Positions 20,842-63,725 are shown, counted from the first letter of the stretch. The stretch: 64,000 bases of DNA from a virus (IMGVR_UViG_3300025030_000054:32001-96000), one strand, 5' to 3'. Notes: a model not told the origin generated them from the letters alone. Numbers and translations: made by a program.

Positions 20842-20905
20842 AACTACTCCTTATAAAATATGATCTGGCTACCAATGTTTACCCCTCACAACTCTTCCTT
20901 ACCTT

Positions 20906-20937
20906 ATTATATACGTAAATGGGTAATAACTTATCAC
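20906..20937 (-). promoter_or_regulatory. Phage-type (putative late) promoter
   Basis: GTGATA-N17-GTATATAAT upstream of the GIY-YIG gene. Confidence 0.6.
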
Positions 20938-26794: not shown

Positions 26795-26826
26795 GGAATA
26801 AAAAGTTGGGTGACCTGGTATATAAT
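26795..26826 (+). promoter_or_regulatory. Phage-type (putative late) promoter
   Basis: GGAATA-N17-GTATATAAT. Confidence 0.6.
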
Positions 26827-26866
26827 AAGATAGAGAAGTACAAAACTATCTTAGGAGAAGTATACC

Positions 26867-43537: not shown

Positions 43538-43569
43538 GTAATAAAAAGATAGTGTTTTAGGTATATAAT
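43538..43569 (+). promoter_or_regulatory. Phage-type promoter
   Basis: GTAATA-N17-GTATATAAT upstream of nrdD. Confidence 0.65.
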
Positions 43570-43638
43570 TAAGTGTCACTAAAAGGGGTGGGTCAAACCG
43601 CCCCTTTAATTTTAACTTTAGCAAGAGGAGTTTTAAAA

Positions 43639-46572
43639 ATGTACTATGTCCCGATAAGTTACACAAGAGAATTTGTAGACCTGATGATGTACCTAAAAAC
43701 AAAGTATGGCCAGAAGTTGTTTGATCTGGAAGGTATAGGCAAGCAACTTGATATGTGCAAATTCTCTAAGGATTTTTTCTCAGCTACTACTACGGCAGAT
43801 GCCAGTGTAGACGCAAATGCCAACGTCACAGACACTTCCAATATTGCTTACGGTATTGAACTACCTAAACCTTATTTCAAACTCAATAGCTATTTCATGT
43901 TGTGGAAGCATATGAGAAAACTATATGGCATGGAGGTTGCCAACTCTACTATAGAGCAGCAGCTTACAGGGTCGGTATACGTAAATGATTTTCTTGGAAT
44001 CGCTGCTGGAAGTCCGTACTGCTTTAATTACAGTACCTACGATATCATGCTTCTGGGCCTACCTATGGTGGATAAAATTAAGTCGGTAGCCCCCAAATAC
44101 CTGTATAGTTTCAAAAGCCAACTTGAGCAGTTTGTTGTAATTGCTTCTAACTCTACCCTCGGTGCTGCTGGGCTGGCTGATCTTCTGATTGTAATGAGCT
44201 ACTATGTCAAAAATATTCTAAGTACTAAATCAGATGCTGGATTTTCTTTCAAGGATGAGGCGGCTTGCTGGAACTACGTTAAAGAAACTTTGGTGAGTTT
44301 TATCTACACTATTAACCAGCCAATGCGAGGCAATCAGTCACCGTTTACTAATGTATCTATTTATGACTCAGAGTTTTTGAATTCTCTTTGCCCCCAATAC
44401 GTGTTTCCTGACGGCAGCACTCCAGATATATACTTAGTTCAGCGGATTCAGGAACTCTTCTTGGATGTTATGAACTCAGAAATGAAACGCACTCCTGTGA
44501 CTTTCCCAATTACCACAGCTTGCTTCTCTGTAAATGACGATAAGAAAATTACGGACGAAGCATTCATTGAGTTCATCGCTGAAAAGAACACAGAGTTTGG
44601 CTTTATCAATATGTACATAGGTAAGAGTTCAACGCTCTCAAGTTGCTGTTTCACTGGCGATCAAAAAGTTCTCGTGAGGGATAGCTATGCGGGTGTGAGG
44701 TTAATGCCTATTGAGAAATACGCCACCACCCCCTTTGAAGAAAAACCTAACGCAACCGTATACCATGATGGGTCTTGGGTTAAAGGCAAAACGGTAAAAA
44801 CTAAATACACCGGCAAACTGTACACTATCAAAACTGCTAATAAAAAAGAAGTCACTGTGACTGCCGACCATATTTTTCCCACACAGAATGGGGATAAGAA
44901 TGCTGCGGATATCACTTTAGATGAAATGTTACTTTTTAATAGTTCTCCACTCACACCAGCTATGAGGGGAACCCAAGAGTTAACCTACGAAGACGGTCTG
45001 TTGATAGGTGCTTACTTAGGAGATGGAAGTATTTATTACAGAAACAATGGGGCATCTGTTGAAGTTACTATGTCGGTAACTGAGGTGAAACTTGAAAGAC
45101 TGCCCTTCTTGAAGTCTTGGAATATTTACCCTAGCAAAAATAATGTGGTATTTGCTAAGAGCTATTCTTTAGAAACAGCAGCTAAGATTGAAGAGTGGGT
45201 TACTGTGGGTAGAGCGCCAGATAAGCGTTTGTCTATGCAGGTACTAGACCAACCTTACGAGTTTAGAGAAGGAATTTTAGACGGACTTTACGCCACTGAC
45301 GGAGGCAATAGCAACCGAATTTATACCACATCAGAAGGTCTGGCAGAGGACTTGGAAGTCCTTCTTACCAGCCTCGGAAGACAGAGTATAATGGACGTGT
45401 CTGACAGGACTGACGAGCCTGTAGTGATTAGGGGAGAAGAGTTCAACAGAAACTACCCGCTACATTGTGTGAGATGGTACGCCCCTAAAAATTCAAGAAA
45501 ACAGGAAGGTATATATCTTAAGAGAAATGGTAATACCTATTTCAAGGCAACTGAGATAGCCGTGAGGGAGGTTGTTGAAGAAGAAGTTTACTGCTTTGAG
45601 GTTCTAAATACAGATGAGCCGTATTTCACGCTACCTAATGGAATTATAACCCACAATTGTCGCCTCAGAAGTGATACAGATAACGAGTACTTCAATAGTT
45701 TTGGTTCTGGTAGCTCTAAGATTGGCTCATTGGGTGTTACTACAATTAATCTTCCGAGGCTTGCTTTTAAAACAGCAGGGCTATCAAAAGATACTGCCGA
45801 ACGAGAAGCCTATTTCTGGAGTGAGCTTAAAGAGTTGGTAGGCATTGCCGCTAGAGTCAACCACACTAAGCGAGATATCGTAAAGAGCAGAATTGACAGT
45901 AATAATCTGCCGCTGTACTCTTTAGGTTTTATGGACCTATCTAAACAATACTCAACGCTAGGGGTAAACGGTCTTAATGAGTGCCTAGAAATTTTAGGGC
46001 TTAACATTTTGGCGAGTGATGGGCAAGAATTTGTTGTTCGAATACTCGAAACCATAAACTCTGAAAATGATAAATTCCAAAAGGCTTACAAAACTCCCCA
46101 TAACTGCGAGCAAATTCCAGGAGAAAATGTCTCTATTAAACTTGCAGATAAAGATAGGTTTATGGGGTATAACGATAGGTACGAACTTTATAGCAATCAG
46201 TTTATACCCCTCACAACTAAAGCTGACCTGCTAGACCGTATTCATCTTCAAGGTTTGTTTGACAGTCATTTTTCGGGTGGCGCTATTTGTCACTTGAATA
46301 TTGAAGAGAAGGTAGAAGATACTAAGAAAGTAGTAGAACTTATCAAGATGTGTGCAGAGAAGGGTGTAATTTATTTTGCCTTAAACTACAATCTGCAACG
46401 TTGTTCTGAAGGCCACATGTCTGTAGGTAAGAAGGAAACTTGTGGGGTATGTGGCGGGGAAGTGATAGATAACTATACAAGGGTTGTTGGGTTCCTGACC
46501 AATGTAAAGAACTGGCATAAGGTAAGACGCGAGCAAGATTATCCTGAAAGACAGTTTTATAAAGAGGCTTAG
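43639..46572 (+). CDS. nrdD: Anaerobic (class III) ribonucleotide reductase large subunit, intein-containing
   Basis: PYC, QSPFTN, SSC|CRL, TINLPR, EQIPGE, glycyl loop TRVVGFL, Zn site C..H..CGVCG. Confidence 0.95.
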   Translation: MYYVPISYTREFVDLMMYLKTKYGQKLFDLEGIGKQLDMCKFSKDFFSATTTADASVDANANVTDTSNIAYGIELPKPYFKLNSYFMLWKHMRKLYGMEVANSTIEQQLTGSVYVNDFLGIAAGSPYCFNYSTYDIMLLGLPMVDKIKSVAPKYLYSFKSQLEQFVVIASNSTLGAAGLADLLIVMSYYVKNILSTKSDAGFSFKDEAACWNYVKETLVSFIYTINQPMRGNQSPFTNVSIYDSEFLNSLCPQYVFPDGSTPDIYLVQRIQELFLDVMNSEMKRTPVTFPITTACFSVNDDKKITDEAFIEFIAEKNTEFGFINMYIGKSSTLSSCCFTGDQKVLVRDSYAGVRLMPIEKYATTPFEEKPNATVYHDGSWVKGKTVKTKYTGKLYTIKTANKKEVTVTADHIFPTQNGDKNAADITLDEMLLFNSSPLTPAMRGTQELTYEDGLLIGAYLGDGSIYYRNNGASVEVTMSVTEVKLERLPFLKSWNIYPSKNNVVFAKSYSLETAAKIEEWVTVGRAPDKRLSMQVLDQPYEFREGILDGLYATDGGNSNRIYTTSEGLAEDLEVLLTSLGRQSIMDVSDRTDEPVVIRGEEFNRNYPLHCVRWYAPKNSRKQEGIYLKRNGNTYFKATEIAVREVVEEEVYCFEVLNTDEPYFTLPNGIITHNCRLRSDTDNEYFNSFGSGSSKIGSLGVTTINLPRLAFKTAGLSKDTAEREAYFWSELKELVGIAARVNHTKRDIVKSRIDSNNLPLYSLGFMDLSKQYSTLGVNGLNECLEILGLNILASDGQEFVVRILETINSENDKFQKAYKTPHNCEQIPGENVSIKLADKDRFMGYNDRYELYSNQFIPLTTKADLLDRIHLQGLFDSHFSGGAICHLNIEEKVEDTKKVVELIKMCAEKGVIYFALNYNLQRCSEGHMSVGKKETCGVCGGEVIDNYTRVVGFLTNVKNWHKVRREQDYPERQFYKEA
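44647..45657 (+). mobile_element. Intein (337 aa) with LAGLIDADG homing endonuclease
   Basis: Starts CFTGDQKV, block B TADH, LIGAYLGDG and LDGLYATDG, ends ITHN followed by Cys. Confidence 0.93.
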
Positions 46573-47043: not shown

Positions 47044-47077
47044 AAAAGCCCCTACAAACTATCTTGTAGGGGCTTTT
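47044..47077. terminator. Bidirectional Rho-independent terminator at arm convergence
   Basis: AAAAGCCCCTACAA-actatc-TTGTAGGGGCTTTT. Confidence 0.9.
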
Positions 47078-47142: not shown

Positions 47143-47721
47143 CTAAAACTTCCTACCAACAAACTTGTTGTAGTAGCTAATAGAGTGATCGCCAACATCC
47201 ACCAACTCCTCACCACTATCCCCGTCTGCAATACCTACCCCTTCACATTTATGTTCAAAAAGAAATTTAGGTATCATCGCCACCGGATCGTCCTTCATGA
47301 AAATTCTAACATGATCTACAGAGGACTCGAAAGACCAGTATTTAAAGTACACTCTAGGCGACCCGAAGGTAATGCAACCAACTCCTAATTTCTCAGCGAA
47401 TAAAGTAGCAACAGCACCTCCCAAAGAATGACCTGTAAAAATTATCTTCCGGTTATCTCCCAGCTCCTTTAGAATCTTAGGGCTAAGTTTATTAAAAGCT
47501 CTGACGAAGCCCCACGTACTAAAGAAACTTCCAAACTTCCAAGGGATAACGTTAATGTCCCTAGCAGCATTTCTAGCATTTGAGGTTCCTCTTATAGATA
47601 CTAAAGTTAAGTCTGCTAAGTGTGTGATGGAATAGCCTAAGTCTTTAACCTCTGTGCAGTTATCATAGACCTCTTCAGATAGTTTGCCGCACAGTTTTAT
47701 TAGTTCGTTTGTAATTGGCAT
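47143..47721 (-). CDS. Class 3 lipase / alpha-beta hydrolase
   Basis: IRGT, TGHSLGGAVA nucleophile elbow, TFGSPRV, DPV..IP, DHSI..Y. Confidence 0.9.
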   Translation of the reverse strand: MPITNELIKLCGKLSEEVYDNCTEVKDLGYSITHLADLTLVSIRGTSNARNAARDINVIPWKFGSFFSTWGFVRAFNKLSPKILKELGDNRKIIFTGHSLGGAVATLFAEKLGVGCITFGSPRVYFKYWSFESSVDHVRIFMKDDPVAMIPKFLFEHKCEGVGIADGDSGEELVDVGDHSISYYNKFVGRKF

Positions 47722-48220: not shown

Positions 48221-48646
48221 TCACTCAACCTTCAGCTTCCCAGCTCGCCACAATTCCCTCTGGCGCCGCCAACTCGGGTCCTCAATATGCGGTAAATCCA
48301 AGAAGCTCTTAAAATAGAACCCAGCAGTCAGACCTAACTTAACTGCTATATCAGCCATTATTTTAAACAGTTTTTTATTTGCAGACCAGTCGAAGTTTTT
48401 ACCGTCCGCTGTCAAAGGCCATAGATCAACAGCTAGTCCGTAGTTATGAGCGGAACTTCCCGGAGGCGCGTTACTAACTACTTTTCCTGGAGTCGTCCTG
48501 CCTTGGGCGTAGATAGCTTTCTGATGTGCCATTGTTCGTCGCCCATCACTAATTCCCCACTTCCTTCCAGTAGCCTTCTCAGTCTGCTTTATAAGTTCCT
48601 CTACCTTTGCCTTAAATGCTGGTTCAAGGGTATCTATCTTCCTCAT
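48221..48646 (-). CDS. Endolysin, M15 (L-Ala-D-Glu peptidase) family
   Basis: R....Q..Y.QGR, SAHNYGLAVD, DLPHIE; start MRKID after GGAG. Confidence 0.9.
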   Translation of the reverse strand: MRKIDTLEPAFKAKVEELIKQTEKATGRKWGISDGRRTMAHQKAIYAQGRTTPGKVVSNAPPGSSAHNYGLAVDLWPLTADGKNFDWSANKKLFKIMADIAVKLGLTAGFYFKSFLDLPHIEDPSWRRQRELWRAGKLKVE

Positions 48647-48656
48647 TTTAAATCTC

Positions 48657-50321
48657 CTAAAATAATCCCAACTCTTTATAATCGCCCCAGTACTCTTCCA
48701 CGCTAACATAGTTCTTGCTATAAAGGTCGCAGTGGTTTGTAAAGTTCTTTCCGTGGTTAATATGAACACTAGAATTAATACAATGCCAAGGGTTTCTCAC
48801 TAAATCAGGCTCAAGCATTACCTGACCTCTTAGCAAAGCCTCTTTAACTTTACTCTCAAAATGACCTATAGCATCACTAAAAAGCATGGTCATCTGGTGC
48901 AAAGGAATAGAGTCATGCACATGCTCATAGCTCTGAAAGCCCTCAGAACATACTCCTTTTAAGTTAGTATTATAAATCACCCCACTATCAAAGTTAGGGT
49001 AATCGAAGTAGCCCTCTGGATAAAGTACGTCATGTTCTAAGAAACTCACATATTTGTAAGACCCAGTGGCTTCCGCTCGGTAAAGTAACTGAAGGATCTG
49101 CAAAGTAATGTTTAGATGGTTGCTACTCTGGGTCTGCGCTATGAGTTCTGGGAAAGGATTATTTTCAATAGTTTTCCAAGTGCTTGTTAAAATGTCTGCC
49201 TTGCCCTTAGATATCCTCTCCAAATTACCTAAAACATTACTCACAACACTATCGTCATTATTATTTGTATAGAATATTCCAAGCCTGTTACAAGTGCCTT
49301 CTGGGATAATTAGATAGTCATTTTCAGGGATTACTTTAGAGTACTCAACGTCATCCAGTTTGTACTTAACCACTAGGTGCTTTAGTATGCCTTCTTGGGG
49401 GTCCCACCCGGCTAGGCTATTATTCACGCAAACATTAAGGCCACTACCTCTAACCAACCGCCTAAGATTAGCTGTTACGTTAGCCCCACCGTATGATGCT
49501 TCTATAATCTCTAATTTCACAGTCTTATCCTTTGCAGCGGTTATTTGAGCAGCTATTGAGTTAACCCTATCAGCACCAAAATGTTCTTCGATAGGCTTTA
49601 AATCAAGTCCGAGTTCGTTGAAACCTATGATATAATTCCTAATCCTATCGTCGTAAATCATAGGGTAAGGTATATCTCCCATACCAGTTTTGAAGAGATG
49701 CACCCAAGACAGGAATGGAAGGCAGATAGTTTTATGCCCTGCCTTTCTATACTTACTGTGAATGTAACCCTCTTCCCCACCAAAGCCTGCAAAGTCTGGG
49801 TTAAATCCTAGCCAAGCATCTTTCCTACAAGCAAATAGACCAAGACCCTGCATAGGAATTTCGTAGGGTTCTGAGTTAGGGTCTATTGAAGCAGCTCGCC
49901 AAGTCCCCCACATACCACTTGCCCACTCATCGTTGAAAGCGTCTGCATAATTAACTAGATCGTCGTATCTCAACGGACCTTGCAGAAGATCTTTACAGTC
50001 AGGATTTTTAGAAGTCCAATCTTTAAAGCTAGCCATAGCACCTTCTGTAAGTAAAACATGGGTATCAATGCACATAACCCAGTCACCTAGAGCCTCTCTA
50101 AATACAAGGTCTCTAGGTGCCGAAGTTCCTGTTTTTTCTGTGTAAAGAATGTAGCGAGTTCCGTAGGTACCGTCTATAAAACTTTTTAGACGCTTATCAC
50201 CATAGTTGTCTATCACTAAAATCTCAGTGTCTGTCATATCTTGGTACATTAAGAGAGATTGGACAGTGAACCAAACTTCAGTAAAATTATTATAACTCGC
50301 CATTCCTATAGTTAGTTTCAT
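48657..50321 (-). CDS. Multi-domain glycosyltransferase (GT-A/GT2 + lectin-like beta domain + second GT-A-like domain)
   Basis: LTIGMASYN, EILVIDN, R...A.GDWVMCIDTH, FGGEEG, H; IIEASYG..DP..G..KHLVVKY; YVSFLEHDVLYP. Confidence 0.85.
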   Translation of the reverse strand: MKLTIGMASYNNFTEVWFTVQSLLMYQDMTDTEILVIDNYGDKRLKSFIDGTYGTRYILYTEKTGTSAPRDLVFREALGDWVMCIDTHVLLTEGAMASFKDWTSKNPDCKDLLQGPLRYDDLVNYADAFNDEWASGMWGTWRAASIDPNSEPYEIPMQGLGLFACRKDAWLGFNPDFAGFGGEEGYIHSKYRKAGHKTICLPFLSWVHLFKTGMGDIPYPMIYDDRIRNYIIGFNELGLDLKPIEEHFGADRVNSIAAQITAAKDKTVKLEIIEASYGGANVTANLRRLVRGSGLNVCVNNSLAGWDPQEGILKHLVVKYKLDDVEYSKVIPENDYLIIPEGTCNRLGIFYTNNNDDSVVSNVLGNLERISKGKADILTSTWKTIENNPFPELIAQTQSSNHLNITLQILQLLYRAEATGSYKYVSFLEHDVLYPEGYFDYPNFDSGVIYNTNLKGVCSEGFQSYEHVHDSIPLHQMTMLFSDAIGHFESKVKEALLRGQVMLEPDLVRNPWHCINSSVHINHGKNFTNHCDLYSKNYVSVEEYWGDYKELGLF

Positions 50322-51556
50322 ATTAGACTCTTAGTTCCCACGCTTGTTTTAATTCTAACTGCTCCCTCATTTGAATACAACGCAAATGATAGAATACCGT
50401 TAGATGTTTTAATTCTTAAAGGCCCGTTTTGAGATGTTTGAACAGGCACTTTAGTTGACCCTGCGAGTAATGTTATAAATGGTATGAAAGGTGCTGCTGT
50501 AGTGGTTGTAGTTGGATTACTTGTTGTCGTAGCTTGTATAGTTGTAGTTGTCGGTTGAACTGTTGTAGTAGCCGCCAAAGTTGTTGTAGGAACTAAGGTA
50601 GTTGTGGTAGTTGGAGCTACGGTTGTTGTAGGGGCAGCTGTTGTGGTAGCCAGCGTAATCACCACCGTATCGCTCACCCCTGCGCTCACATTCCCCGCCG
50701 CGTCCTTGGCCCACGCCCAGAGCGTCTTGATCCCTGCTTCCGCAAACGTGTGCGTCTCAGGTGCCGTCGCGCTCCATCCTGAGTCTCCTGCAAGCGGTGG
50801 GGTTGCTGACTCGGTGAGCTTGTAACCTGTTACTGCTACATCGTCCGTTGCGAGTAGAGATGTGATCGGGACGGTGAGGGTGGTTGAGGTTGCGGGGATA
50901 GTGAAGTAGGTAACGGCCGGGAAAACTATCGCACCATCTGCCGCCAAAAACGGTGTGAGTGCAGACATGATGCCAGTGACCAAAACATCCTTCGCCGCCG
51001 CGTTGACATGTACGCCGTCAACCAGATAATCAGCTTTCCAGTTGGCGTTGACGGTCATCGCCGTCTGCCAATTGACAAACGGCAGACCCCATTCTGTCGC
51101 CAGAGATTGCAGCCTATTGCGTAGCGGATCGGTATCGGTCAGATTTCTGTGGTAGGTGAAGCCATCTGTTGATTCCGCATGTGCGGGCGCAGCCACAAGC
51201 AACATGAGGGGATAGCTTGCCATCCCGTCCAAGAGTGCGCGATAATCCCTCACCCTCTGTTCGTAGGCGTCAGGGTTATAGCGTGTCGGATTTCCAGAGA
51301 TAAAGTTGTAGTATCCGTCATTGGTCCCGCCGTGAAGGAACACAACCAAGTCAGGCGCAAACGGTGTTACTTGAGTCGAGAAGTTGTTCAGCGCATCGTA
51401 AGAAGTAGACCCCCCAACCCCACTGTTGGTAATAGTGTATGTTGCTGCCGGATATGAATCATTGAGCGCGGCCTGTAGCTTAGCCGCTAAATCCCCAAAG
51501 GTTGCGTCGTTGTATTCGGTGTTGCTGTCGCCTACTAGGGTTATTTTGGTTGTCAT
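50318..51556 (-). CDS. SGNH/GDSL esterase + Ig-like domain + mucin-like Thr/Pro linker (probable virion accessory protein)
   Basis: GDSNT, NSGVGG, GGTND, DGVH; AWAKDAAGNVS; TTTAAPTTTVAP repeats. Confidence 0.85.
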   Translation of the reverse strand: MTTKITLVGDSNTEYNDATFGDLAAKLQAALNDSYPAATYTITNSGVGGSTSYDALNNFSTQVTPFAPDLVVFLHGGTNDGYYNFISGNPTRYNPDAYEQRVRDYRALLDGMASYPLMLLVAAPAHAESTDGFTYHRNLTDTDPLRNRLQSLATEWGLPFVNWQTAMTVNANWKADYLVDGVHVNAAAKDVLVTGIMSALTPFLAADGAIVFPAVTYFTIPATSTTLTVPITSLLATDDVAVTGYKLTESATPPLAGDSGWSATAPETHTFAEAGIKTLWAWAKDAAGNVSAGVSDTVVITLATTTAAPTTTVAPTTTTTLVPTTTLAATTTVQPTTTTIQATTTSNPTTTTTAAPFIPFITLLAGSTKVPVQTSQNGPLRIKTSNGILSFALYSNEGAVRIKTSVGTKSLI

Positions 51557-51564
51557 TTTGTCCC

Positions 51565-54102
51565 CTAGTACTCTTTGTAATTCGTTACTGTGAAATCTGA
51601 AGCATTACTATCTGTATAAAAGTCCATACCTAAACACTCATAAAAAGTTGACCCTGCGTCTTTTATGTCTATGCCAAAAGTTAGCCAACCTGTAGTTGCT
51701 AGCTGAGTACGGCTTGAATTTAAGACTGACAGCTTTGCCGTAGTGCCGCTAACTTCCAGTTTCGCAATATAGGTTGTCCCTGCCGTTACTGTAGGGGTGT
51801 CAATGACACCTGAATATGTATCAGATGGTGTGTACCACCTCAGCCTAAGAACATTAGTACTTCCCGTACCAGCCGGTGATGCATACACCCATAATCTACG
51901 TGTAGATGCGATAGTCGCACCATCCCCAACGACCGGAGCGGAAGATTTTTCAACAAGGCCGAATATATCACCGCCTCCTTCCGTGAATACAGAAGCAGCA
52001 ACAGAAAATGTTACTTCGTAACTCCTCACATTGGCTTTGCTGAAATTCTTAGAATACATAAAAGCAGCTTCCCATCCCAATGAAAGGATTCTTAAGCTGG
52101 ATGTTTCCGAAACCGACCCCCCATCCCCGGTGACTACTTGCCACTTAGCTGTATCAAGTGACGAATTGTTAAAATTATCGGAGTATAACGGCGGAGTCCC
52201 GCTAACCTCCGCCGACTCCGTACTCCCCGCCCCGTTGATAGCCGCGAGGCTGTAATAGTACGTGGTCCCGTTGGTGCGCCCTGTGTGAGTGTACGGGAGG
52301 GTGACGCCGGTTATCGTATTGCTACGGGTGCCTGCTACTGTGCCCCATTTGAGGTCGTAGCTGGTCGCGCCGGTGCCGCCGGATGTTAGGGCGATGACGT
52401 TTTGAGTGTCGCCGGGGGTGACGCTGATGACCGGCTGAGTGGGAGCGGCTGCGGTTGTGACAGTAAACGTATCGCTAACCCCACCAATGGTAAGTGTGGT
52501 ATTTACTGCTGTACTAGCACTGCCAGAACTTGTCACCTTGACCTTGACAGTATCACCATTGATGACCGTTCCCGATGTGCTTGTGTACGCTCCACCATTC
52601 TTGCTGTATTCGCCACCTGTTATCGAAATAGTAGCAGCATCATTTATTCCTGCTACAGTGATCGTGTTGGACTCTGTAGCTGTACTCACCGCAACGCCTG
52701 TCTGATCGGTAAAGGTGAAAGCATCGGGAGTCGTATCTGCCACTACAGTAACGACAGAGAAAGTATCAGTCACATCACCTATGGTTAAGAACGCTGTCGC
52801 TGAACTGTTATACCCAGTAGAGCTGTAAAGCTGTACCCTTACGCTGTCGCCGTTTACTACAGTTCCGTCCACATTTGTGAATGCACCCTCATTGACAGAA
52901 TACCAGCCACTGAGTACGTGAATGGCAGCAGGTGCATTTATACCAGAGACAGTTATCGGAGCCGAGGTAATCAGGGTGTTTAGTGCTACGCTTGATTGAT
53001 CCACGAAGACGAATCCATCGGGCGTCGTATCTGGTGCTACTGTAGTTGTCGGACTTGCTGTAGTTGTCGGTGCTACTGTAGTTGTCGGTGCTACTGTTGT
53101 GGTAGTAGTTGTTGTAGGCACTGCAGTAGTTGTAGCTGCTAAAGTTGTAGTCGTAGGGTTAGCCGTAGTTGTCGGACTTGCTGTAGTTGTCGGTGCTACG
53201 GTAGTCGTAGTTTCTATTAACGTAGTGACGGTGAAAGAGTCTGTAACTCCGCCTATGGTTAAATACCCAGTCGTTACAGTCCCATAGTCAGGAGAACTGT
53301 AAAGTTGTACTTTTACGGTATCCCCATTCACCACTGTACCATCCGCATTTGTAAACGGGCCGTCATTGATAGAATAATTAGCGCCAGTTATACTTATCGG
53401 AGTTGCCGTATTAATACCATCCACAGTTATACCAAAGAACAGTGTAATTAAGCTATTCCGGGCTACATTCGTTTCATTGATAAAATTAAATGTATTAGGA
53501 GTGGTATCTGGTACTGCTGTAGTTGTTGGAGCCACTGTTGTAGGTACTGCTGTAGTTGTGGCTGCTACTGTAGTAGTAGTTGGTGCTATAGTTGTAGTAG
53601 TAGGTACTGCCGTAGTAGTAGGTGCTACAGTAGTCGTAGGTGCTACCGTAGTTGTAGGTGTTACAGTAGTTGTTCCTAACAAATCGGTCCTAATAACAAA
53701 CGTATAGCCTTGTGCAAACAACGCATCTTCCTGCACTTGTGTAGAAGCCTCTCCTACAAGTATGCCGGACTGACCAATCCTAGCATCCAGTTTCCGAATT
53801 ACTTCTTGGGTTAAATGAAAGGCAAACTCGCTGTCACCTGCATAAATTTCTGCAAGCCCCAAGTTAGGAGTCCAGTCAGTAGTTATCTGGTAAGAAGAAC
53901 CAGCTACGGAAATTCCAGCGTAGTTAGGGCTGATCTGAATTTGGGTGTTACTATCCACAGATATAATACCGTAAATAGCGGCTACTCCGTAAACTTTAAA
54001 AGTATCCCCAACACCAACCTTACTGAGCCAAGAAGTTCCCACCCCAGTCACTATATTTGTACCTTGATCTACTGATACTGTACCAACCTGATACTGTGCC
54101 AT
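51565..54102 (-). CDS. Tail fibre/adhesin with mucin-like linkers, three DTTP beta-repeats, FN3 and C-terminal lectin-like domain
   Basis: N-terminal Y..GTVSV....VTG.GTSW fibre start; TTTVAPTTT tracts; 3x (P/A)DTTP..F.F...LTIG.V.D.F.V; HTGRTNGTTYYY. Confidence 0.85.
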   Translation of the reverse strand: MAQYQVGTVSVDQGTNIVTGVGTSWLSKVGVGDTFKVYGVAAIYGIISVDSNTQIQISPNYAGISVAGSSYQITTDWTPNLGLAEIYAGDSEFAFHLTQEVIRKLDARIGQSGILVGEASTQVQEDALFAQGYTFVIRTDLLGTTTVTPTTTVAPTTTVAPTTTAVPTTTTIAPTTTTVAATTTAVPTTVAPTTTAVPDTTPNTFNFINETNVARNSLITLFFGITVDGINTATPISITGANYSINDGPFTNADGTVVNGDTVKVQLYSSPDYGTVTTGYLTIGGVTDSFTVTTLIETTTTVAPTTTASPTTTANPTTTTLAATTTAVPTTTTTTTVAPTTTVAPTTTASPTTTVAPDTTPDGFVFVDQSSVALNTLITSAPITVSGINAPAAIHVLSGWYSVNEGAFTNVDGTVVNGDSVRVQLYSSTGYNSSATAFLTIGDVTDTFSVVTVVADTTPDAFTFTDQTGVAVSTATESNTITVAGINDAATISITGGEYSKNGGAYTSTSGTVINGDTVKVKVTSSGSASTAVNTTLTIGGVSDTFTVTTAAAPTQPVISVTPGDTQNVIALTSGGTGATSYDLKWGTVAGTRSNTITGVTLPYTHTGRTNGTTYYYSLAAINGAGSTESAEVSGTPPLYSDNFNNSSLDTAKWQVVTGDGGSVSETSSLRILSLGWEAAFMYSKNFSKANVRSYEVTFSVAASVFTEGGGDIFGLVEKSSAPVVGDGATIASTRRLWVYASPAGTGSTNVLRLRWYTPSDTYSGVIDTPTVTAGTTYIAKLEVSGTTAKLSVLNSSRTQLATTGWLTFGIDIKDAGSTFYECLGMDFYTDSNASDFTVTNYKEY

Positions 54103-54162
54103 ACAAGTCTCCTAACAAACTATCTAATAAATTGTCCTAAAACAAATAAATCATTTCATACT

Positions 54163-54194
54163 ATTATATACCCTCTAGGCATAATAAATATTAC
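54163..54194 (-). promoter_or_regulatory. Phage-type late promoter
   Basis: GTAATA-N17-GTATATAAT upstream of the fibre/SGNH/GT/endolysin unit. Confidence 0.65.
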
Positions 54195-54214
54195 TTTGGC
54201 AAGTACATTTAATA

Positions 54215-54745
54215 CTAGACCCACTTAATTGCTTCTACTTCCTCTACTGTCTCAGCTAATTCTATTTGAGTTTTTAATGCTCTGGCCTTTTGATGTATAG
54301 CATTACCTCTCAAGGCCATAGTTATGGGAATCTGAACCATCTGAGATTTATCCATAGTTACTGTAGAGCTGTCCTGGCAAGTCCACTCAATAGAAAACTC
54401 TGGAACAACTTGAGCTGCCTGAACTGCTATACTAATTCTTCGGATAGCTGCTAAGTCTGAATCAAAACGTTTGTCTAGGTAATCAAAGCCAGAGAGTTCT
54501 TCTACATCTCTGGCTTTTTTGATTTCATCCCATTTTATTTCTTTGGCTCTAAGCAAAGTCAGTGTAGACTGCACCACAGGAACTCCATTAATTATGTGGG
54601 TAGCCTTCTCCATCTCCAATAGATTTTCTGGGCTGGCTTTAAAGTGCAGAAATTTATGGATGGCGGGGTCACTGTTATAGTCTGCTGAATCATCATCATA
54701 AATTCCCACTTTCTTTCCAGTTATTATTTCATATACACAAATCAT
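54215..54745 (-). CDS. Tail fibre assembly chaperone (DUF4376-like)
   Basis: KWDEIKKARD..FDSD..IEWT.QD...KARALK.QI..AETVEEVEAIKW. Confidence 0.8.
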   Translation of the reverse strand: MICVYEIITGKKVGIYDDDSADYNSDPAIHKFLHFKASPENLLEMEKATHIINGVPVVQSTLTLLRAKEIKWDEIKKARDVEELSGFDYLDKRFDSDLAAIRRISIAVQAAQVVPEFSIEWTCQDSSTVTMDKSQMVQIPITMALRGNAIHQKARALKTQIELAETVEEVEAIKWV

Positions 54746-57700
54746 CTGACAACTCCCTCTATAGAAAACACAACTTTCGTTATTTCCTTTATCCCAGAAA
54801 ATCCTGCTATATTAGCGTGCAAGGCTACGGTATGAGAACCTGAATTAAGGTAAACCCTATTGCTAACCGCATTGCCTCCTAAGTACGCTCCAGCACCACC
54901 ATATTGATGTGAATCTATAGTTACGCCGTCTACTTTTATTTCGTAGTAGTAGTGCTCATCGCCAGACACTGCCCCGTCTTTGGTAACGTAAGTCATAAGG
55001 TTATAATAAGCCGAATGTCTTACTGTAAAATTATAAGAAGCAACCAAGGCTGGGTTTATGTTGTTGTTTATACCATTGTAAAAATTTGTGTCTATAGAGG
55101 CGTACCGCTGCACTGAAACAGCTTCTCCGGCAATTTGCAAGGTATCTACATAGGCATCTCCAGTGTATATCTTGTTACCGTCTATGGTAGTTGTGCCTGG
55201 CCTTGTCCACTCTGATACTGTTGTAGCCGCACTAGCCGCATTATCCCTTACAGTAGCTGCCAAGGTTCCGCCCACTTTAGCTACGTCACTGGCGTATACC
55301 ATGTTGTCTGTATCAGTTACTTGAATAGTTCCGAAAGAAGTTACGACAGAAACGTCCCAGCCTGCTTTCCAAGTATCTATATCGTAGTTAGAATAACCCG
55401 CGATAAAATTCTTTACGACTACTTTAGGGTGTGCCCAAGAAGCATTAGTCTCCCCAATCCAAACACACGCCTTGGTTCCATCGTGTCCGAAACGTATAGC
55501 ATGAGATGCACTAGACTGTCCTATAATAGACGCAGAAGTGTTTACCCAGTAACCTCCTGAGTAATTATACCCGCCAATCAATGCGGTAAAGTATTGGTTG
55601 GTGGTGTAATTGTAAACATCTACAGAAAACTGAAGCATCGTACCAGACCATAATACCGGCAATGATATCTTAATAGCTCCAGTCGCACTACCAGTAATAC
55701 TGTAAGTTCCACCTACTGGTCTTGCTATGGTGGTTAAGCTATCTTCAGTGGAGTTTGCCATAGAAGCTGCTTTAACAGCTACCGCGTTAAGTAAGGCAGT
55801 TCTAGCATCGTAGTAAGCCTTCCAGCTTGCCCTAAAGGTTGACCCTACGATTACAGTAGTAGTACTTGCACTAGCGTCTGAAATCCAAGAGGGTATTCCA
55901 CTAGTCCAAGTTACTCCTGCATTTAAGTAATCGGCTAAACTCTGAAAAGCGGCTGTGTAAGTAGCCTTTTCTGTAGGTAATCCAAATGAGGTAGCTTGGG
56001 TTTCTATTCCAGCCTTTTCAGCAGATATTACCTCCCACTCTCTCCTAACCGTGTACTTTTCATTGGGCGTTAGTTTACTGTCAGAGGCGATATCTGATAC
56101 TAAACTATTAACTGTGTTTGCTGTGTTCACTGCGTTGGTTGCATTTTGAGAGGCAGTTGCAGCAGCTCCCGCAGCAGTATTTGCAGTACTATTTGCCGTG
56201 TCTGCTACAGTCTTTGCTTTGGTAGATATGGCATTTAATAAGATAGTTCGATTGTAATAATAGGTGCTCCATTTTGACCTAAAAGTTGCTCCTACAATAG
56301 TCGTGGTGGTTGGTATGTTAGCGTCAGTTATCCAAGAAGGAACTCCACTACTCCATGCCGCGCCATTGTTAAGGTAGTTTGCAAGAGCCTGAAAAGCATT
56401 TATGTAGTTAGCCTTTTCTGTAGTTATTCCGAAGTTCTCTGCCTGAGTATTTATCCCACCCCACTCGCTAGCAACAACATCCCACTCTAGTCTTACAGAC
56501 TGCTTTTCGGTAGCCGTTAGTTTGCCATCAGACGCTATTTCAGCAATTAGTGCATTAGCTGTTTCGGCTTCGTTTAGAGCATCTGCTATAGACTCATTTA
56601 TATCTTCCACTGCGGGAGTCCATGCAGTAGCCGTGTTACCTATTTCTACTTTTAATAACTTGACTATAGGTTTTACTCCAGTACCGTAAGTACCGTAGAA
56701 CGAAAGATGGCAGATATCTCCATTATATCCAGCAGGGTCATATGAGAAACTTCCAGTTAAGGAGAAATACTGATACTCTGTTGTAGCATTCACAACTAAA
56801 GAAGTGTTTATAAGGTATTTTCCCAAACTATAGACTACTACCTGACCAGGGATGGTAGATTTTAACAAACCAGAAATAGTTACAGGCTTCCCTAAGTTGG
56901 CTATTGCAATACTGTTAAGATCCACTGGTAGGTACTCTGTAACAGAAGTTCTTTCTACGTCACTGCCTGCTAATAGGTTTCTCCCACCAACCACAATAGC
57001 ACTGTTATCTACTTCAATTGTTTGTCCGGCAGCATTTTTAGGGTTTGAAGTGAAATGAACTGTCCCATAGAAATCACCGCCCATGAGCTGAAAAGTGCCT
57101 GTCTTATCAAACTTCCAGCCAGCCTGTCCAGCAACATAGTTAGTGCTTTGAATATAGTTGCCTATCTTTGCATTGTCTATGTCCCCCTCTTTTATTGCAG
57201 CTTTGGCTATATAAACTGTTCCTTGGTCAACTATGAAAGGAACTAAAGGCGTAGCTCCCGGACCTGCATCCACAATAGAAAATCTGTCAGCAAGAATTTC
57301 TACATTGCTAGTTACTCCATCACTCCACAGACCTATTCCAGCGATCTTACCGTTAGCATCCACCTTCAACATCATCTTAGCCTCTACCGCAGAGGTTATA
57401 GCTCCGTCAATTGCTGTAGTAGTTTCGACAGTAGTAGAGTAGTTGATTAGTGCAGAAGCTGTGTTATTGTTTGCCGTAGCTACCGCGCCAGAAGTAGCAG
57501 TAGCTATAGCTGAGTCCGCGTCTACTTTTGTATAGTAGCTTGCTAACGAAGTTGCCAGCGAACCAGTACTAACTAGAGAAGAGGTAGCCCCAGTTATTGC
57601 CGTAGCAGTTGCAGAGTCCGCTTCGGTTTTTGTGTAGTAACCAGAAAGCGCCGTAGCAAGTGTACCGTTAGTGACTGACTCAGAGGTCGCGCCAATTACT

Positions 57701-58212
57701 GCTTCAGAGATTGCAGTGTCGGCTTCCACCTTAGTATAGTAGTAGTCCAATGCTGCGGCTCTGGCTTGGGCTTCTCCAGATACCGCAGCAGCTCTATCTA
57801 AAATCTCTTGGGCTAGTCTATCTAACAAACCAACTTCAGGGGAATCTATCAGGTCTATTCTGCTACTAAGTTCCGAATGCAATTCGCTTTCAGTAATCTG
57901 CCCCGAAATCATTTCTATAATATCTGGGATAGATCTTACCGTGACACTCTTCTCTTCTGAATAGTTTAAACTTAGAAAATCAATGTTTTCTGGATCTTCA
58001 AAACTATCGTAAGCAGCTACCTTAATGTAGTACACCCCGTCATCTGAAGGTATAGTTACAGAAGTATCAGGCCCAACACTAACCATATTACTTTCAGAAG
58101 GCGTAAAGCCGCTCTCTAAAGATGCATTGATTACGTAACCTACCACGTCAAGGTCAGGTGCCGGATTAAATGTTACTACATAATTTTTTATTCCAGCTTC
58201 TAAGTTTATCAT
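54742..58212 (-). CDS. Tail fibre/host-specificity protein (gpJ C-terminal-like half)
   Basis: YYTKxEAD repeats, LKVDANGKIAGIGL..ADRF..PFIV..VYI (DUF1983-like), IQSTNY..GW, GGRNLL..EIGN.AT.WTPA CBM-like block, duplicated IASD.KLT domain. Confidence 0.85.
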   Translation of the reverse strand: MINLEAGIKNYVVTFNPAPDLDVVGYVINASLESGFTPSESNMVSVGPDTSVTIPSDDGVYYIKVAAYDSFEDPENIDFLSLNYSEEKSVTVRSIPDIIEMISGQITESELHSELSSRIDLIDSPEVGLLDRLAQEILDRAAAVSGEAQARAAALDYYYTKVEADTAISEAVIGATSESVTNGTLATALSGYYTKTEADSATATAITGATSSLVSTGSLATSLASYYTKVDADSAIATATSGAVATANNNTASALINYSTTVETTTAIDGAITSAVEAKMMLKVDANGKIAGIGLWSDGVTSNVEILADRFSIVDAGPGATPLVPFIVDQGTVYIAKAAIKEGDIDNAKIGNYIQSTNYVAGQAGWKFDKTGTFQLMGGDFYGTVHFTSNPKNAAGQTIEVDNSAIVVGGRNLLAGSDVERTSVTEYLPVDLNSIAIANLGKPVTISGLLKSTIPGQVVVYSLGKYLINTSLVVNATTEYQYFSLTGSFSYDPAGYNGDICHLSFYGTYGTGVKPIVKLLKVEIGNTATAWTPAVEDINESIADALNEAETANALIAEIASDGKLTATEKQSVRLEWDVVASEWGGINTQAENFGITTEKANYINAFQALANYLNNGAAWSSGVPSWITDANIPTTTTIVGATFRSKWSTYYYNRTILLNAISTKAKTVADTANSTANTAAGAAATASQNATNAVNTANTVNSLVSDIASDSKLTPNEKYTVRREWEVISAEKAGIETQATSFGLPTEKATYTAAFQSLADYLNAGVTWTSGIPSWISDASASTTTVIVGSTFRASWKAYYDARTALLNAVAVKAASMANSTEDSLTTIARPVGGTYSITGSATGAIKISLPVLWSGTMLQFSVDVYNYTTNQYFTALIGGYNYSGGYWVNTSASIIGQSSASHAIRFGHDGTKACVWIGETNASWAHPKVVVKNFIAGYSNYDIDTWKAGWDVSVVTSFGTIQVTDTDNMVYASDVAKVGGTLAATVRDNAASAATTVSEWTRPGTTTIDGNKIYTGDAYVDTLQIAGEAVSVQRYASIDTNFYNGINNNINPALVASYNFTVRHSAYYNLMTYVTKDGAVSGDEHYYYEIKVDGVTIDSHQYGGAGAYLGGNAVSNRVYLNSGSHTVALHANIAGFSGIKEITKVVFSIEGVVR

Positions 58213-58221
58213 AAATTATCC

Positions 58222-61200
58222 TTAAGTTAGTCTAGCAGGTACTGGGTTAGTCACTTGCAAGGTTTTTGGTGCAGACTCTCTTCCCAACCTATCTACTGCA
58301 ATTACAGTAATACTGAAAGTTCTAACTGGCCTACCTGCACCGTCTACATAATTTTGCTCATATTTATAGTCGTAATGCTCATCATAGACCTTAGTACTAT
58401 GCCTCACAGAACCATCAGCATTTTTAATGGTTATCTGATATTCCTTCAACCAAGAATCTGCTGTGGCTGTTGCTAGGGCACTGTCGGTAGCTAGATCGTT
58501 GAGATTAAAGTCAACTACGGCAGGTTTTCGCCAAGTGAATTTAGCATCCTTCCCAGCAAACTCCGTAGTATTTCCCTGACCTACTAACTGAAGCCCAGAC
58601 ACGCCCTTTATAAACTCAGTGTTATCTATGTAAGGAGTTATGTAGAGAGTGTAGTAAGGAGTCAGGTCAGTATCGCCCAAAGCCTCTGCTATACTCTGCC
58701 TAGTTCCATCTGTGTAAACCGAGATGCAGATAAACTGGTATTCTCCTTCTACTGTTATCTCCGGAATATTAACTACTCCAGTTTTGTCTATAGGAGTCTC
58801 AGCATAAACTCCGTTAATTCCGTAGTAGACAATAACACCAGCCCAGCCTAATTGAACAGGCTTAGAGTAGTAAACCCTAGCACCAGTCTTTAAGTTACCC
58901 GTAGAATCAACATACACAGTAGACTCTGCGAACACATTCTTAACTGACCTCTTAATGGCGTCTAAGCTGCTGTAGTTCGGCATCACTATAATTGGCAGGT
59001 CGGTAATATCGTCAGCGTCTGTATAAATCTCATCTAAGTATTCTACACAAGTAACTTCTATAACTTCGTCTTTATCTCTCTTTAGTGAAACAAATTTAAA
59101 GGGCTTTACGGTGTTTGTAATGTCGCCTACAATGTACAAATCATCCTTCGCTGGGGTATTTACAGGAATCTCGTCTAAGGTAAATTCTCTACAGATGCCC
59201 ATATTACTTGGTGTAACCGCAACTATCTCTGGAGACTTGCCTTTACAAACTAACTGCATAGAATGTAAAACAGAAACATCTGAACTAATTTCTACATCGT
59301 CACTTACAGTTATTAGTCTAGTCTCTGCATCATAACTTACTACCCTTCCCCCAAACCCCCATTGAGGAACATCGTGCTGTACACCTATCACGTCCCCTAC
59401 CGTAGATAGTAATCCATAAGTAGAAGTCTTGAAAGAAACCGAGGTAGTTAAAAGCTGACCAACCCTGAGAGCGTATTTAGCAAGTGACTTAGCTTGGTCC
59501 TCTCCGGTAACGCCTATCAACTGCAAGGTCTTTTTGCTCTCTTCCTTAGTAATGTCTAACTGATAATCTGGATCTTCCAAAATCAAAGTATCCTGATCGT
59601 AATCCTTCTCTTTATTATTGAACTGTACTTCATATACGTTAGGAAGTTGCTTGAAAGACATACCTGTTTCGACATACTCTTTGATGTTGCTCATGTTAAA
59701 GAGTTGGCTTATGGGTTTGGGTCTATCAATATCAATGAAAACAACCCCTTCAGTGTAATACAAGGTGGCTCTCATCGAAGCGCATATAATAGTCAACCAT
59801 TCGATAGCTGTCTTAGACTGGTCTATTACTATGTTGAGGCTGAATCTAGGTCTAGCAGATTCGTAGTCGTCACTGGTAGGGTCCGTTACTAGCGTGCCGT
59901 CAGGTGTTATCCTCTCGTCACAGTACTGAGCCATTTGAAAGAAGTTGGCCTTCATCAACCCAAGTTTGGAGGATGAAATTTTAAAGTAGTCTTTTAAGCC
60001 ATACCTCTCGTTCATTATCAAATCATACAGACACCAAACTGGATTATCGGTCCATTCTTTATCTGCTTTGAATAGTCCGTTATAGGCATCTGACATGTAC
60101 CTGCGAGTTCCGTTATAGAACTGTGGTAGTTGAACCTTAGTACCTTGTATGACAGATGTTATTGTAGGCAACCCGCCGGATATAAACTCAGTCGCTTTGA
60201 TACTCAACCCTAGAAGTGCTGTGTGGGGGTATATAAGCTGTTCTTGAATCTCCTCAATAACATCCTTAACATAAACGTTATCTACTATCAAGAGATTATC
60301 TGAGTTACTAGGAGTGACCCTAATAAGTTTTACATCGTATGCGCCATTTTCCCGTATAGGCACTACGAAGGTTTGCTCAGACTCTGATTTAGTTTTTCCT
60401 CTTATGCTGACTATAGTGTGTTTTTTTGTAATACCGTCTGAGTAAAATTCTGAGTACGAATCTCCTGTGCTTAATTTCCAGTATACTTTTATATCGACTG
60501 TGGTGTCTAACAGTTCGCCCTTTTCACTCTTATATATTGCTGGGGCCGCCAAGTTTATTTTAAGCGCATCGACTGGTGTTGAAGTAGATACAACCACACC
60601 GTCAGAGGTTGGGTCTATCGTAGAGTCTTCAGTGTTGGTTACTAAAAGATTATACGAAAAAGAGTTCTTAACTCTGTTGAAGTACTCCATTGACGAGGTA
60701 ACGTCCGTATTTAATGCGCCAGAGTTTCTTATGACGTACTTATCCACGTAACCGTCTAAGGTAGCAGCCGAACTAGGTACTGGGTATCTGGACACTTCAA
60801 AGCGCGGGTCTGCCGCAAGCGTGTCATACCACACCTCAGTAAACCCACCAGCCCAAGACTTAGGCGTTACTACTTTAATTTTATACATCCCAGTGGTGGG
60901 GAATACTACATTAGCTTTTGTGGGTTCTAGGTAAGCGCGTAAGTTATTAAAAGGTTTTCTTGGAATAGCAACTGGACCTACTCTATTGGAATAGTCATCC
61001 GAACTTGAAGCCTCCTTCCAGTAAATATAACATACCTCATCTGTCTGATCTGGGTACGTACCACTAAATGCACCTATATAAACATCTACGCTAGTAGCTG
61101 CGCTTTCTAATGTGTACTCTAATTCTAAATGAAAACCTGTAGGTGCTTCTAGTCTGTCAAAGGTTCTAATTACAGGTACAACTGTGCTAGTTGCGTCGTC

Positions 61201-61959: not shown

Positions 61960-62353
61960 TTTGATTATCCTTGTGCCTAAGTATGCAATGTACTTTGCCA
62001 TGCCACTGACCACTTCTGTAAGAATGAACTGCTGTGCCTACTTTAGTGGTATGTACAAAATACTCAGAATCTATTATTACACCTAAATGCTTAGGGATTC
62101 TGTGTTCGATTAAAACTACTACGTCGCCGGTTCTAGGAGAGTCGGTTATTTTATAGAAACCTTCAGACTCATAGCGGTCAAGTATCAGGTTGTCTTTTAG
62201 ATTAAACCAATCCTCAACATAATCAGCGTCTGGAAGGTCTATTCCGAATTCCTTAGAGTAAATGAGTTTGACCAGTCTGTAGCAATCGGCACCTTCTCCG
62301 ATACCTGAGCCTCTAAACTTATATGGAATTTTCAAATACTCTAAGTAATTCAT
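61949..62353 (-). CDS. NlpC/P60 tail-tip protein (gpK C-terminal-like)
   Basis: IPY..G...GADCY.LV, GDVV, HLGV, FVH. Confidence 0.88.
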   Translation of the reverse strand: MNYLEYLKIPYKFRGSGIGEGADCYRLVKLIYSKEFGIDLPDADYVEDWFNLKDNLILDRYESEGFYKITDSPRTGDVVVLIEHRIPKHLGVIIDSEYFVHTTKVGTAVHSYRSGQWHGKVHCILRHKDNQNDN

Positions 62354-63663: not shown

Positions 63664-63693
63664 TACTCTCTCCTGTCTATGTCTTTCTACTCT

Positions 63694-63725
63694 ATTATAT
63701 ACAAACTGGTTACGTATTTTATTAC
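63694..63725 (-). promoter_or_regulatory. Phage-type late promoter
   Basis: GTAATA-N17-GTATATAAT upstream of the tail-tip operon. Confidence 0.65.

Follow-up and report, generated by a model that had tools for sequence, protein, structure and literature searches.

What does a glycosyltransferase (GT) encoded between the fibre and lysis genes of a tailed phage act upon? The question is raised by a 64,000-nt stretch of viral DNA, comprising bases 32001-96000 of the 105,687-bp IMG/VR virus record IMGVR_UViG_3300025030_000054 (an uncultured tailed phage, estimated 93% complete); this whole stretch is called the window below, and coordinates refer to it unless another record is named. At the end of its minus-strand structural block, a GT gene follows directly upon the genes for a side fibre and for a protein with an SGNH-type esterase domain, both of which contain long tracts rich in threonine and proline (Thr/Pro). 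The initial annotation of the region, made from the DNA sequence alone, proposed that the GT glycosylates these tracts. Our analysis supports that proposal because the adjacency of the GT to Thr-rich genes is found across the lineages of its family, because relatives of the phage without the GT also lack the tracts, and because the N-terminal domain of the enzyme resembles polypeptide N-acetylgalactosaminyltransferases (ppGalNAc-Ts) in fold and metal-binding motifs. Phage-encoded O-glycosylation of the Thr/Pro linkers of the fibre and the SGNH protein by the downstream GT is, in our view, the probable function of the locus, as predicted from sequences and structural models.

Re-reading of the open reading frames (ORFs) reproduced the gene order and lengths given initially: fibre (51565-54102, 845 amino acids), SGNH protein (50318-51556, 412 amino acids), GT (48657-50321, 554 amino acids) and endolysin, all on the minus strand, as are the other features of the locus unless stated otherwise. 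From fibre to endolysin, the four genes are tightly coupled. At the first junction, read directly, 8 nt lie between the fibre TAG and the ATG that starts the SGNH gene; the GT gene is coupled to the SGNH gene through the ATGA overlap that had been described, which is seen in the junction sequence; and the TAG of the GT gene is separated by approximately 10 nt, containing GGAG, from the endolysin ATG at 48646.

Three tracts of the TTT[VA][AV]P type lie where they had been reported. Two are in the fibre, at amino acids 143-197 (53512-53676) and 297-357 (53032-53214), and the third is in the SGNH protein, at amino acids 303-354 (50495-50650); each is a proposed O-glycan acceptor. All four Thr codons occur in the tracts, Ala, Val and Pro are likewise encoded by mixed codons, and the longest DNA word that they have in common is 12-13 nt. 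Given these mixed codons and the absence of any shared DNA word above 13 nt, the repeat is maintained at the level of the peptide, as had been suggested. In a six-frame scan of the whole 105,687-bp genome, only the fibre and SGNH ORFs reach at least 12 Thr per 30 residues.

The pairing of the GT with Thr-rich proteins is not confined to this phage. Relatives of its N-terminal domain (N-domain) are present in at least 445 confirmed uncultured-viral stretches, and 80 loci were fetched for counting. A Thr-rich ORF is located within 5 kb upstream of the GT and on the same strand in 56 of these 80 loci, and in 37 it ends no more than 150 nt from the GT start. Of the Thr-rich ORFs counted individually, 74 precede the GT on its own strand, 7 follow it on that strand, and 2 are encoded on the opposite one. 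When the GTs were clustered at 70% identity, 23 of the 33 evaluable lineages had an upstream Thr-rich ORF, which was adjacent in 16 of them. By contrast, 80 endolysin-anchored viral control loci (1.1 Mb) contained no ORF with 14 or more Thr per 30 residues, and the GT was absent from all of them (Fisher p = 5e-24 for the forward association against these controls, calculated on loci that are not independent). PHROG searches with ten Thr-rich neighbours from other loci remained mostly blank, with one pectate-lyase-like domain and a few matches to immunoglobulin-like (Ig-like) domains.

The C-terminal domain of the enzyme (C-domain) was found in 9 of the 80 N-domain loci, always as a fusion, and the other loci are without it within 10 kb. 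Since it is so infrequent, the C-domain can be regarded as an optional addition, and the N-domain as the constant partner of the Thr-rich genes. The pairing is also specific to enzymes of this family, which have a DxH motif, rather than a property of GT2 enzymes in general, as judged from the control phage L098 (G036), in which two other GT2 genes (92533-95165, one of them in a 557-amino-acid frame) have no Thr-rich neighbour. These two genes display no BLAST-level kinship to the N-domain family.

Comparison with related phages points in the same direction. In a sister phage (L002) the GT is 93% identical, and both upstream proteins carry Thr tracts despite having different heads. The L002 fibre is 92% identical to the fibre studied here over amino acids 1-153 and unrelated beyond the Thr tract, while the second L002 protein (735 amino acids, not an esterase) shares just its last 58 residues with the SGNH protein. 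Another relative, L085, belongs to a complete genome (G029) of 113 kb that has terminal repeats, and its J protein (56%), endolysin (80%), lipase (56%) and fibre N-terminus (75%) are identical to those of the present phage to the degrees indicated. The L085 fibre is devoid of a Thr tract, and the whole genome was found to encode neither the SGNH protein nor any GT2. In two further phages, L083 and L084, the fibres have Thr tracts, and the contigs stop before the expected position of the GT.

A second relative without the GT came from a search anchored on DUF4376, which returned two loci only and was unusable as a control for the fibre module. The fibre of this phage (L362, 10553-13171 of its record) is 52% identical to the present one and alignable over amino acids 1-640. 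It contains five Ig-like repeats, the extra ones being placed exactly at both Thr-tract positions of the present fibre; its Thr content reaches a maximum of 11 per 30 residues, and the 51.7-kb record contains no GT. Short DTTP junctions are retained at the borders of the Ig-like repeats when the two fibres are compared. Thus, Thr tracts and Ig-like repeats seem to have replaced one another within the clade, and this swap appears to be particular to the locus. Given that the homology to L002 breaks at the tracts while the heads differ, the tracts are best interpreted as linkers that join a conserved, presumably docking, module to exchangeable distal domains.

The GT consists of an N-terminal GT-A domain (amino acids 1-265, 49527-50321), a middle beta domain (amino acids 266-340, 49302-49526) and a C-terminal GT-A-like domain (amino acids 341-554, 48660-49301). 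The full-length protein was modelled with AlphaFold from eight full-length homologues at a predicted local distance difference test score (pLDDT) of 70.8, and a second model of amino acids 266-554 was built from 61 homologues (pLDDT 95, predicted template modelling score 0.89). Both GT-A folds of the initial domain description are seen in the models, but the label "lectin-like" given to the domain between them was not sustained; its sole basis is a sub-threshold match to PF11875 (E 0.0047), and the domain is described here as DUF3395-like. The N-domain matches PF00535 over amino acids 5-98 with 33.8 bits, compared with a cutoff of 23.3 (36.1 bits in the genome search), and there is otherwise no Pfam match above threshold.

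Structural comparison places the N-domain closest to the ppGalNAc-Ts, which are its best matches in Foldseek (E 9e-14). In VIA the top 22 rows are all ppGalNAc-Ts, with Z of 18.3-20.5 and a root-mean-square deviation (rmsd) of 3.2-3.8 over 225-240 residues covering amino acids 1-265; GalNAc-T2, T4, T10 and T12 score at Z 19-20.5 with an rmsd of 3.2-3.5 over about 235 residues, compared with Z of 17-18 for RmlT, TarS, SpsA and WrtF. A search of the PDB with the GT as a single sequence gave no match, and a profile of the eight homologues found GalNAc-T10 at E 0.0055 and TgGalNAc-T3 at E 0.24. In the profile alignment to GalNAc-T10, D86-T-H88 falls on DSH, FGGEEG (180-185) on WGGEQ, and WVH208 on RVGH; D38 is a further marked residue of the domain. 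These alignments cover the Mn2+-binding and Gal/GalNAc-T motifs. Among 81 viral relatives, 76-79 retain D86, H88, E183, E184 and H208 (D86 in 79, H88 in 79, H208 in 76). FGGEEG is a variant of the WGGEN-type loop and served to retrieve the loci, so that its conservation among them is partly circular. For the catalytic domain, the likeness to ppGalNAc-Ts is therefore stronger than had been claimed, in both fold and motifs. It is weaker for the middle domain, which has six strands (pLDDT >90) and is not a ricin-type beta-trefoil lectin; PF00652 is absent from the GT.

The C-domain carries an invariant E429-H430-D431 motif and Y434. Its Foldseek matches, at E 1e-6, are SpsA, B4GALNT1 and BoGT6a, and its VIA matches, at Z of about 14, are TarS, TarP and SpsA. 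Representatives of this domain family are few (148 among 1.84 billion), and its members often occur alone or after the same beta domain, which also precedes the C-domain in standalone relatives of about 290 amino acids. The presence of two GT-A domains might indicate a polymerase that primes on Thr and then adds a long alternating polysaccharide, giving the fibre a proteoglycan-like coat, and Foldseek and VIA alignments of the full-length protein to K4CP and to heparosan synthase 2 do span both GT-A domains. These alignments have an rmsd of 13-20 and a template modelling score of 0.28-0.31, so that only the domain composition is common to the enzymes; most family members moreover consist of the N-domain alone, with the C-domain being optional. 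We consider such a polymerase very unlikely.

A number of observations weigh against glycosylation of the tracts by this enzyme. Approximately 30% of the GT lineages have no Thr-rich ORF inside the fetched flank. The margin of the ppGalNAc-Ts over other GT-A enzymes is only 1.5-2.5 Z units, obtained with a model of pLDDT 70.8, and the profile E-value for GalNAc-T10 (0.0055) is marginal; the top sequence-level PDB match for amino acids 1-116, the nucleotide-binding half, is instead TarP, a wall-teichoic-acid GT (E 1.1e-6). The C-domain also resembles nucleotidyltransferases (VIA Z of about 12). In tblastn searches of 50,697 GenBank phage records, no match was found with the whole GT (E 1e-5) or with the N-domain (E 0.01). 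Finally, the association does not hold in reverse. When viral loci were retrieved with a degenerate DNA pattern for TTTxxPTTTxxPTTT, 73 of the 80 stretches had a Thr-rich ORF, and just one of these 73 had a GT of this family; among whole records with TTTxxP tracts, the GT was present in 2 of 28. Any PF00535 GT2 was found in 9 of these 28 records, compared with 2 of 37 control records. Of the co-occurrence of GT and Thr-rich genes expected initially, the half that holds is therefore the presence of a Thr-rich ORF beside the GT, and a dependence of Thr tracts on this GT family was rejected. The GT appears to need a Thr-rich partner, whereas the tracts do not need this GT; elsewhere they must be served by other transferases or remain unmodified.

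These data could also be accommodated if the tracts were unglycosylated flexible linkers or recombination junctions, and the GT modified a glycopolymer of the host envelope (lipopolysaccharide, capsule or teichoic acid), for instance as a means of excluding superinfection or of changing the cell as it lyses. The 26 TTTxxP records without the GT, and the two thirds without any PF00535 GT2, would then be unsurprising, as would the exact coincidence of the breaks in sister-phage homology with the tracts, which is what shuffling junctions would produce. TarP, the best sequence-level match, is itself phage-encoded, and the full-length fold resembles the two-domain polysaccharide polymerases K4CP and PmHS2. 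A host glycopolymer as target nevertheless leaves unexplained why the GT lies beside Thr-rich genes in so many viral lineages and in many bacteria but in none of the 80 controls, and why the tracts are missing from relatives without the GT. The enzyme has no membrane segment and no Gtr-like partners, and its gene is part of the late structural block, in a phage without visible lysogeny context. On balance, modification of the host envelope seems unlikely.

Two known phage-borne systems illustrate the difference. TarP (6H1J) is a GT2/GT-A enzyme like the present GT, but lacks the set of DxH, FGGEE and His as well as Thr-rich neighbours. GtrB sits in the membrane and has GtrA and GtrC as partners, whereas the GT studied here is predicted to be soluble, having no hydrophobic segment (the maximum 19-residue Kyte-Doolittle mean is 1.03), and is encoded in the fibre operon. 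Seroconversion of the GtrB type was rejected on the absence of a transmembrane segment and on the neighbouring genes, which encode the fibre, the esterase and the endolysin.

If glycosylation of the tracts is accepted, it may be asked whether both modified proteins are parts of the virion. For the fibre, the conserved N-terminal anchor module (amino acids 1-142, 53677-54102) has PHROG tail-fibre matches, and amino acids 6-79 are weakly similar to the distal tail protein gp20 (PDB 23gd_B, E 1.9e-5). Three internal Ig-like repeats are recognisable in the translation. Repeat A (amino acids 198-296, 53215-53511), between the two tracts, matches phage proteins including Collar-domain fibres in Atlas structures at a template modelling score of 0.9. 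Repeats B and C (amino acids 358-550) are followed by an Fn3-like domain (amino acids 551-640; all three together at 52183-53031), for which the matches are 1x4x_A and 3mpc_A at E 1e-4 to 5e-4 and a weak one to PF00041. The C-terminal head (amino acids 645-845, 51568-52170) is a ConA-like beta-sandwich according to Atlas structural matches, with template modelling scores of 0.7-0.77 to GH43_C2, DUF1349, 3-keto-disaccharide hydrolase, PL7 and GH16-like domains. Judging from these modelled folds, it is probably a glycan-binding or glycan-cleaving tip, and it has been exchanged in L002, L084 and L362.

The SGNH protein begins with an SGNH/GDSL esterase domain (amino acids 1-200, 50957-51556; PF13472, 63.4 bits, E 4.9e-17), and its membership of this family is borne out by the catalytic blocks VGDSN, GGTND and DGVH in the translation. 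An Ig-like domain (amino acids 205-300, 50657-50944) follows, which has no Pfam match and is 64% identical to part of an 891-amino-acid protein of L362. Beyond the Thr/Pro tract, the protein ends in a 58-residue module (APFIPFITL...RIKTS, 50321-50494) without family assignment. This module shares 76% identity with the C-terminal end of the 735-amino-acid protein of L002 (L002:9831-10004), which is unrelated in its remaining parts and is encoded at the same gene position; the similarity between the two starts directly after the Thr tract. The module is a candidate for docking to the virion on the strength of this conservation. Signal peptides and membrane segments are absent from both the fibre and the SGNH protein, and PHROGs has no family for the SGNH protein or the GT.

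Relatives of the N-domain are also found in bacteria, with 366 hits in bacterial genomes (Chloroflexota, Planctomycetota, Alphaproteobacteria, Desulfobulbia and others). Of 78 bacterial loci, 50 have a Thr-rich ORF in the vicinity, mostly upstream on the same strand, and these partners are often small with a signal-peptide-like start. In L285, L339, L340, L350 and others, the N-domain lies just 3' of small poly-Thr ORFs (e.g. AHAAASAPATTTT), which are sometimes in tandem. The fusion partners of bacterial relatives are radical SAM/SPASM, PqqD, FemAB, methyltransferase, DoxX/MauE or DUF7164 domains; fusions with the first four of these are typical of a setting of peptide modification.

That the bacterial partners do not look structural raises the alternative that the GT does glycosylate Thr-rich proteins, but that one or both of those in the phage are not virion components; they might be soluble enzymes or decoys freed at lysis, such as an SGNH esterase that may act on the host envelope alongside the endolysin and the lipase. 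The clustering of the SGNH gene with the GT, endolysin and lipase genes would suit this, as would the lack of a PHROG structural match for the SGNH protein. It is harder to reconcile with the tail-fibre PHROG matches and distal-tail-like N-terminus of the fibre, whose gene follows those for gpJ, the tip protein and the DUF4376 protein, or with the retention of the 58-residue end on a different protein in the sister phage, as would be expected of a docking module. A role outside the virion thus appears distinctly unlikely.

The genes upstream of the fibre encode a lambda-J-like tip attachment protein (58222-62013; PF13550, PF24801), a tail-tip fibre protein (54742-58212; PF09327) and a DUF4376 protein (54215-54745). 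Downstream of the GT are an M15/VanY-type endolysin (ORF 48221-48769, with the likely start at the ATG at 48646; PF02557, PF13539; PHROG endolysin families at E 6e-24) and a class-3 lipase (47143-47721; PF01764, E 1.5e-14), the last gene before a strong terminator-like hairpin (47044-47077, a 15-bp stem followed by a T-run) that closes the minus-strand block. Approximately 500 nt separate the endolysin from the lipase, and the pair is kept in the relatives L085 and L087-L090. Because of the lambda-J-like tail tip and the M15 endolysin, the host of the phage is probably Gram-negative. The phage has little similarity to deposited ones: the best identity of the J-like protein among deposited phages is only 26%, to Serratia siphoviruses, and megablast of the region against GenBank phages gave no match. 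NCBIfam contains no family for the fibre, the SGNH protein or the GT.

On the plus strand, beyond the terminator, lies a gene for the anaerobic ribonucleotide reductase NrdD (999 amino acids, 43573-46572), into which an intein carrying a LAGLIDADG endonuclease is inserted (PF13597, PF14890, PF14528), and the NrdD activase (PF13353, 46580-47038) is encoded downstream of it.

The composition of the genome bears on a further possibility, namely that the GT glycosylates bases of the phage DNA. Phage GT-A enzymes that act on hydroxymethylated bases have been described (bioRxiv 10.1101/2023.12.21.572611). Searches of the present genome found no other GT1 or GT2, no sugar epimerase and no thymidylate-synthase-type hydroxymethylase, and the record is 93% complete. 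The gene is placed in the fibre and lysis block rather than in a replication block, and modification of DNA would leave the pairing with Thr-rich genes unexplained. It is extremely improbable that DNA is the substrate.

The initial annotation also placed one late promoter in front of the fibre gene. A 112-nt gap 5' of this gene (54103-54214) is a candidate promoter region, but a sigma-70 scan of the gap detected no site, and the regional counts are at chance level, leaving the claim without support. The gap does contain a TATATAATA box (54162-54173) located 60 nt 5' of the fibre ATG. Boxes of the form (G)TATATAATA are present shortly 5' of several co-oriented genes (20905-20916, 26816-26827, 43559-43570, 54162-54173 and 63693-63704), and the element may be a phage promoter element. 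Its number, 9 compared with 6.4 expected from shuffled sequence, is not above chance.

Among characterized enzymes, the best fold matches to the N-domain are GT27 ppGalNAc-Ts (human GalNAc-T2, 2FFU/4D0T; T10, 2D7I; Toxoplasma GalNAc-T3). Both the GT27 enzymes and the phage GT have DxH with a downstream His and a (W/F)GGE(N/Q/E) loop, both place the catalytic domain before a non-catalytic beta domain, and the acceptors of GT27 are Thr/Pro-rich tracts, as proposed for the phage enzyme. They differ in that the type II membrane anchor of GT27 is absent from the phage GT, which would be soluble and cytoplasmic, in that the accessory domain is a DUF3395-like sandwich of about 75 amino acids instead of a ricin-type beta-trefoil, and in that the phage enzyme has a second GT-A domain; similarity at the sequence level is marginal (E 0.0055).

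To our knowledge, mycobacteriophages are the only tailed phages for which glycosylation of their own virions has been shown experimentally. This glycosylation affects the recognition of the particles by antibodies. According to Freeman et al. (2023, Cell Host Microbe 31:1216), as summarised in PMC12363180 and PMC12582341, the mycobacteriophages Che8, Corndog and Myrna glycosylate their own virion proteins with their own GTs. Their enzymes show no kinship to the present GT at the sensitivity of BLAST, and their targets are capsid and tail-tube subunits, whereas the targets proposed here are linkers within the side fibre and the SGNH protein. Serine-rich repeat adhesins of Gram-positive bacteria provide another parallel: their Ser/Thr stalks are O-glycosylated in the cytoplasm by GtfA/GtfB and accessory GT-A enzymes. 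Common to these and the phage system are a binding head on a stalk, GT genes beside the substrate gene, and stepwise initiation and extension; the adhesins differ by a GT-B (GT4) initiator and export through SecA2/Y2, neither of which is found here. The fusion of three domains in one GT, and the position of the tracts as linkers inside both a side fibre and an esterase protein, set this locus apart. Full-text literature searches retrieved no paper that ties a ppGalNAc-T-like phage enzyme to Thr-rich fibres.

Returning to O-glycosylation of the linkers, which we favour, the process might run as follows. Late in infection, the soluble cytoplasmic GT would act on the two tracts of the side fibre and the single tract of the SGNH protein. 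The N-domain, with D86, H88 and H208 as metal ligands and the FGGEEG loop, would add a first sugar from a host nucleotide sugar to Thr hydroxyls, and the beta domain together with the second GT-A domain (E429-H430-D431) could attach a further sugar. The glycosylated tracts would become extended, protease-resistant and hydrated spacers, taking the role that Ig-like repeats have in the relatives without the GT. The analysis itself establishes how the genes are ordered and coupled, that the tracts are unique in the genome, the folds and motifs of the enzyme, its adjacency to Thr-rich ORFs throughout the family, and which relatives have or lack GT and tracts. From this evidence we infer that sugar is transferred and from which donor, what each catalytic domain does, that the SGNH protein is located in the virion, and how the phage benefits. 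The purposes that had been suggested, stiff stalks, shielding from proteases and penetration of biofilms, may be regarded in the same light.

A wider interpretation is possible, although we hold it doubtful. Mucin-type O-glycosylation in the cytoplasm might exist in both tailed phages and many bacteria, with an initiating enzyme that is a true relative of GT27 and, in this phage, is fused to a reader or extender made up of the beta domain and the second GT-A domain; glycosylated poly-Thr spacers would be interchangeable with Ig-like repeats in the shafts of fibres, and the viral or prokaryotic enzymes might be the source of mucin glycosylation in animals.

The GT family has members in uncultured viral contigs and in bacterial species, hundreds of each and usually next to Thr-rich proteins, yet has no match in the phages deposited in GenBank. 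If the proposed function is true, glycoprotein fibres would be common and overlooked in environmental phages, with consequences for the way these phages recognize their hosts, for the stability of their particles and for their adhesion to slime or biofilm. The GT, being compact and soluble and having an acceptor tag as simple as TTTxxP, could then serve in protein glyco-engineering. The enzyme would also represent a prokaryotic or viral counterpart of those that initiate mucin glycosylation in animals.

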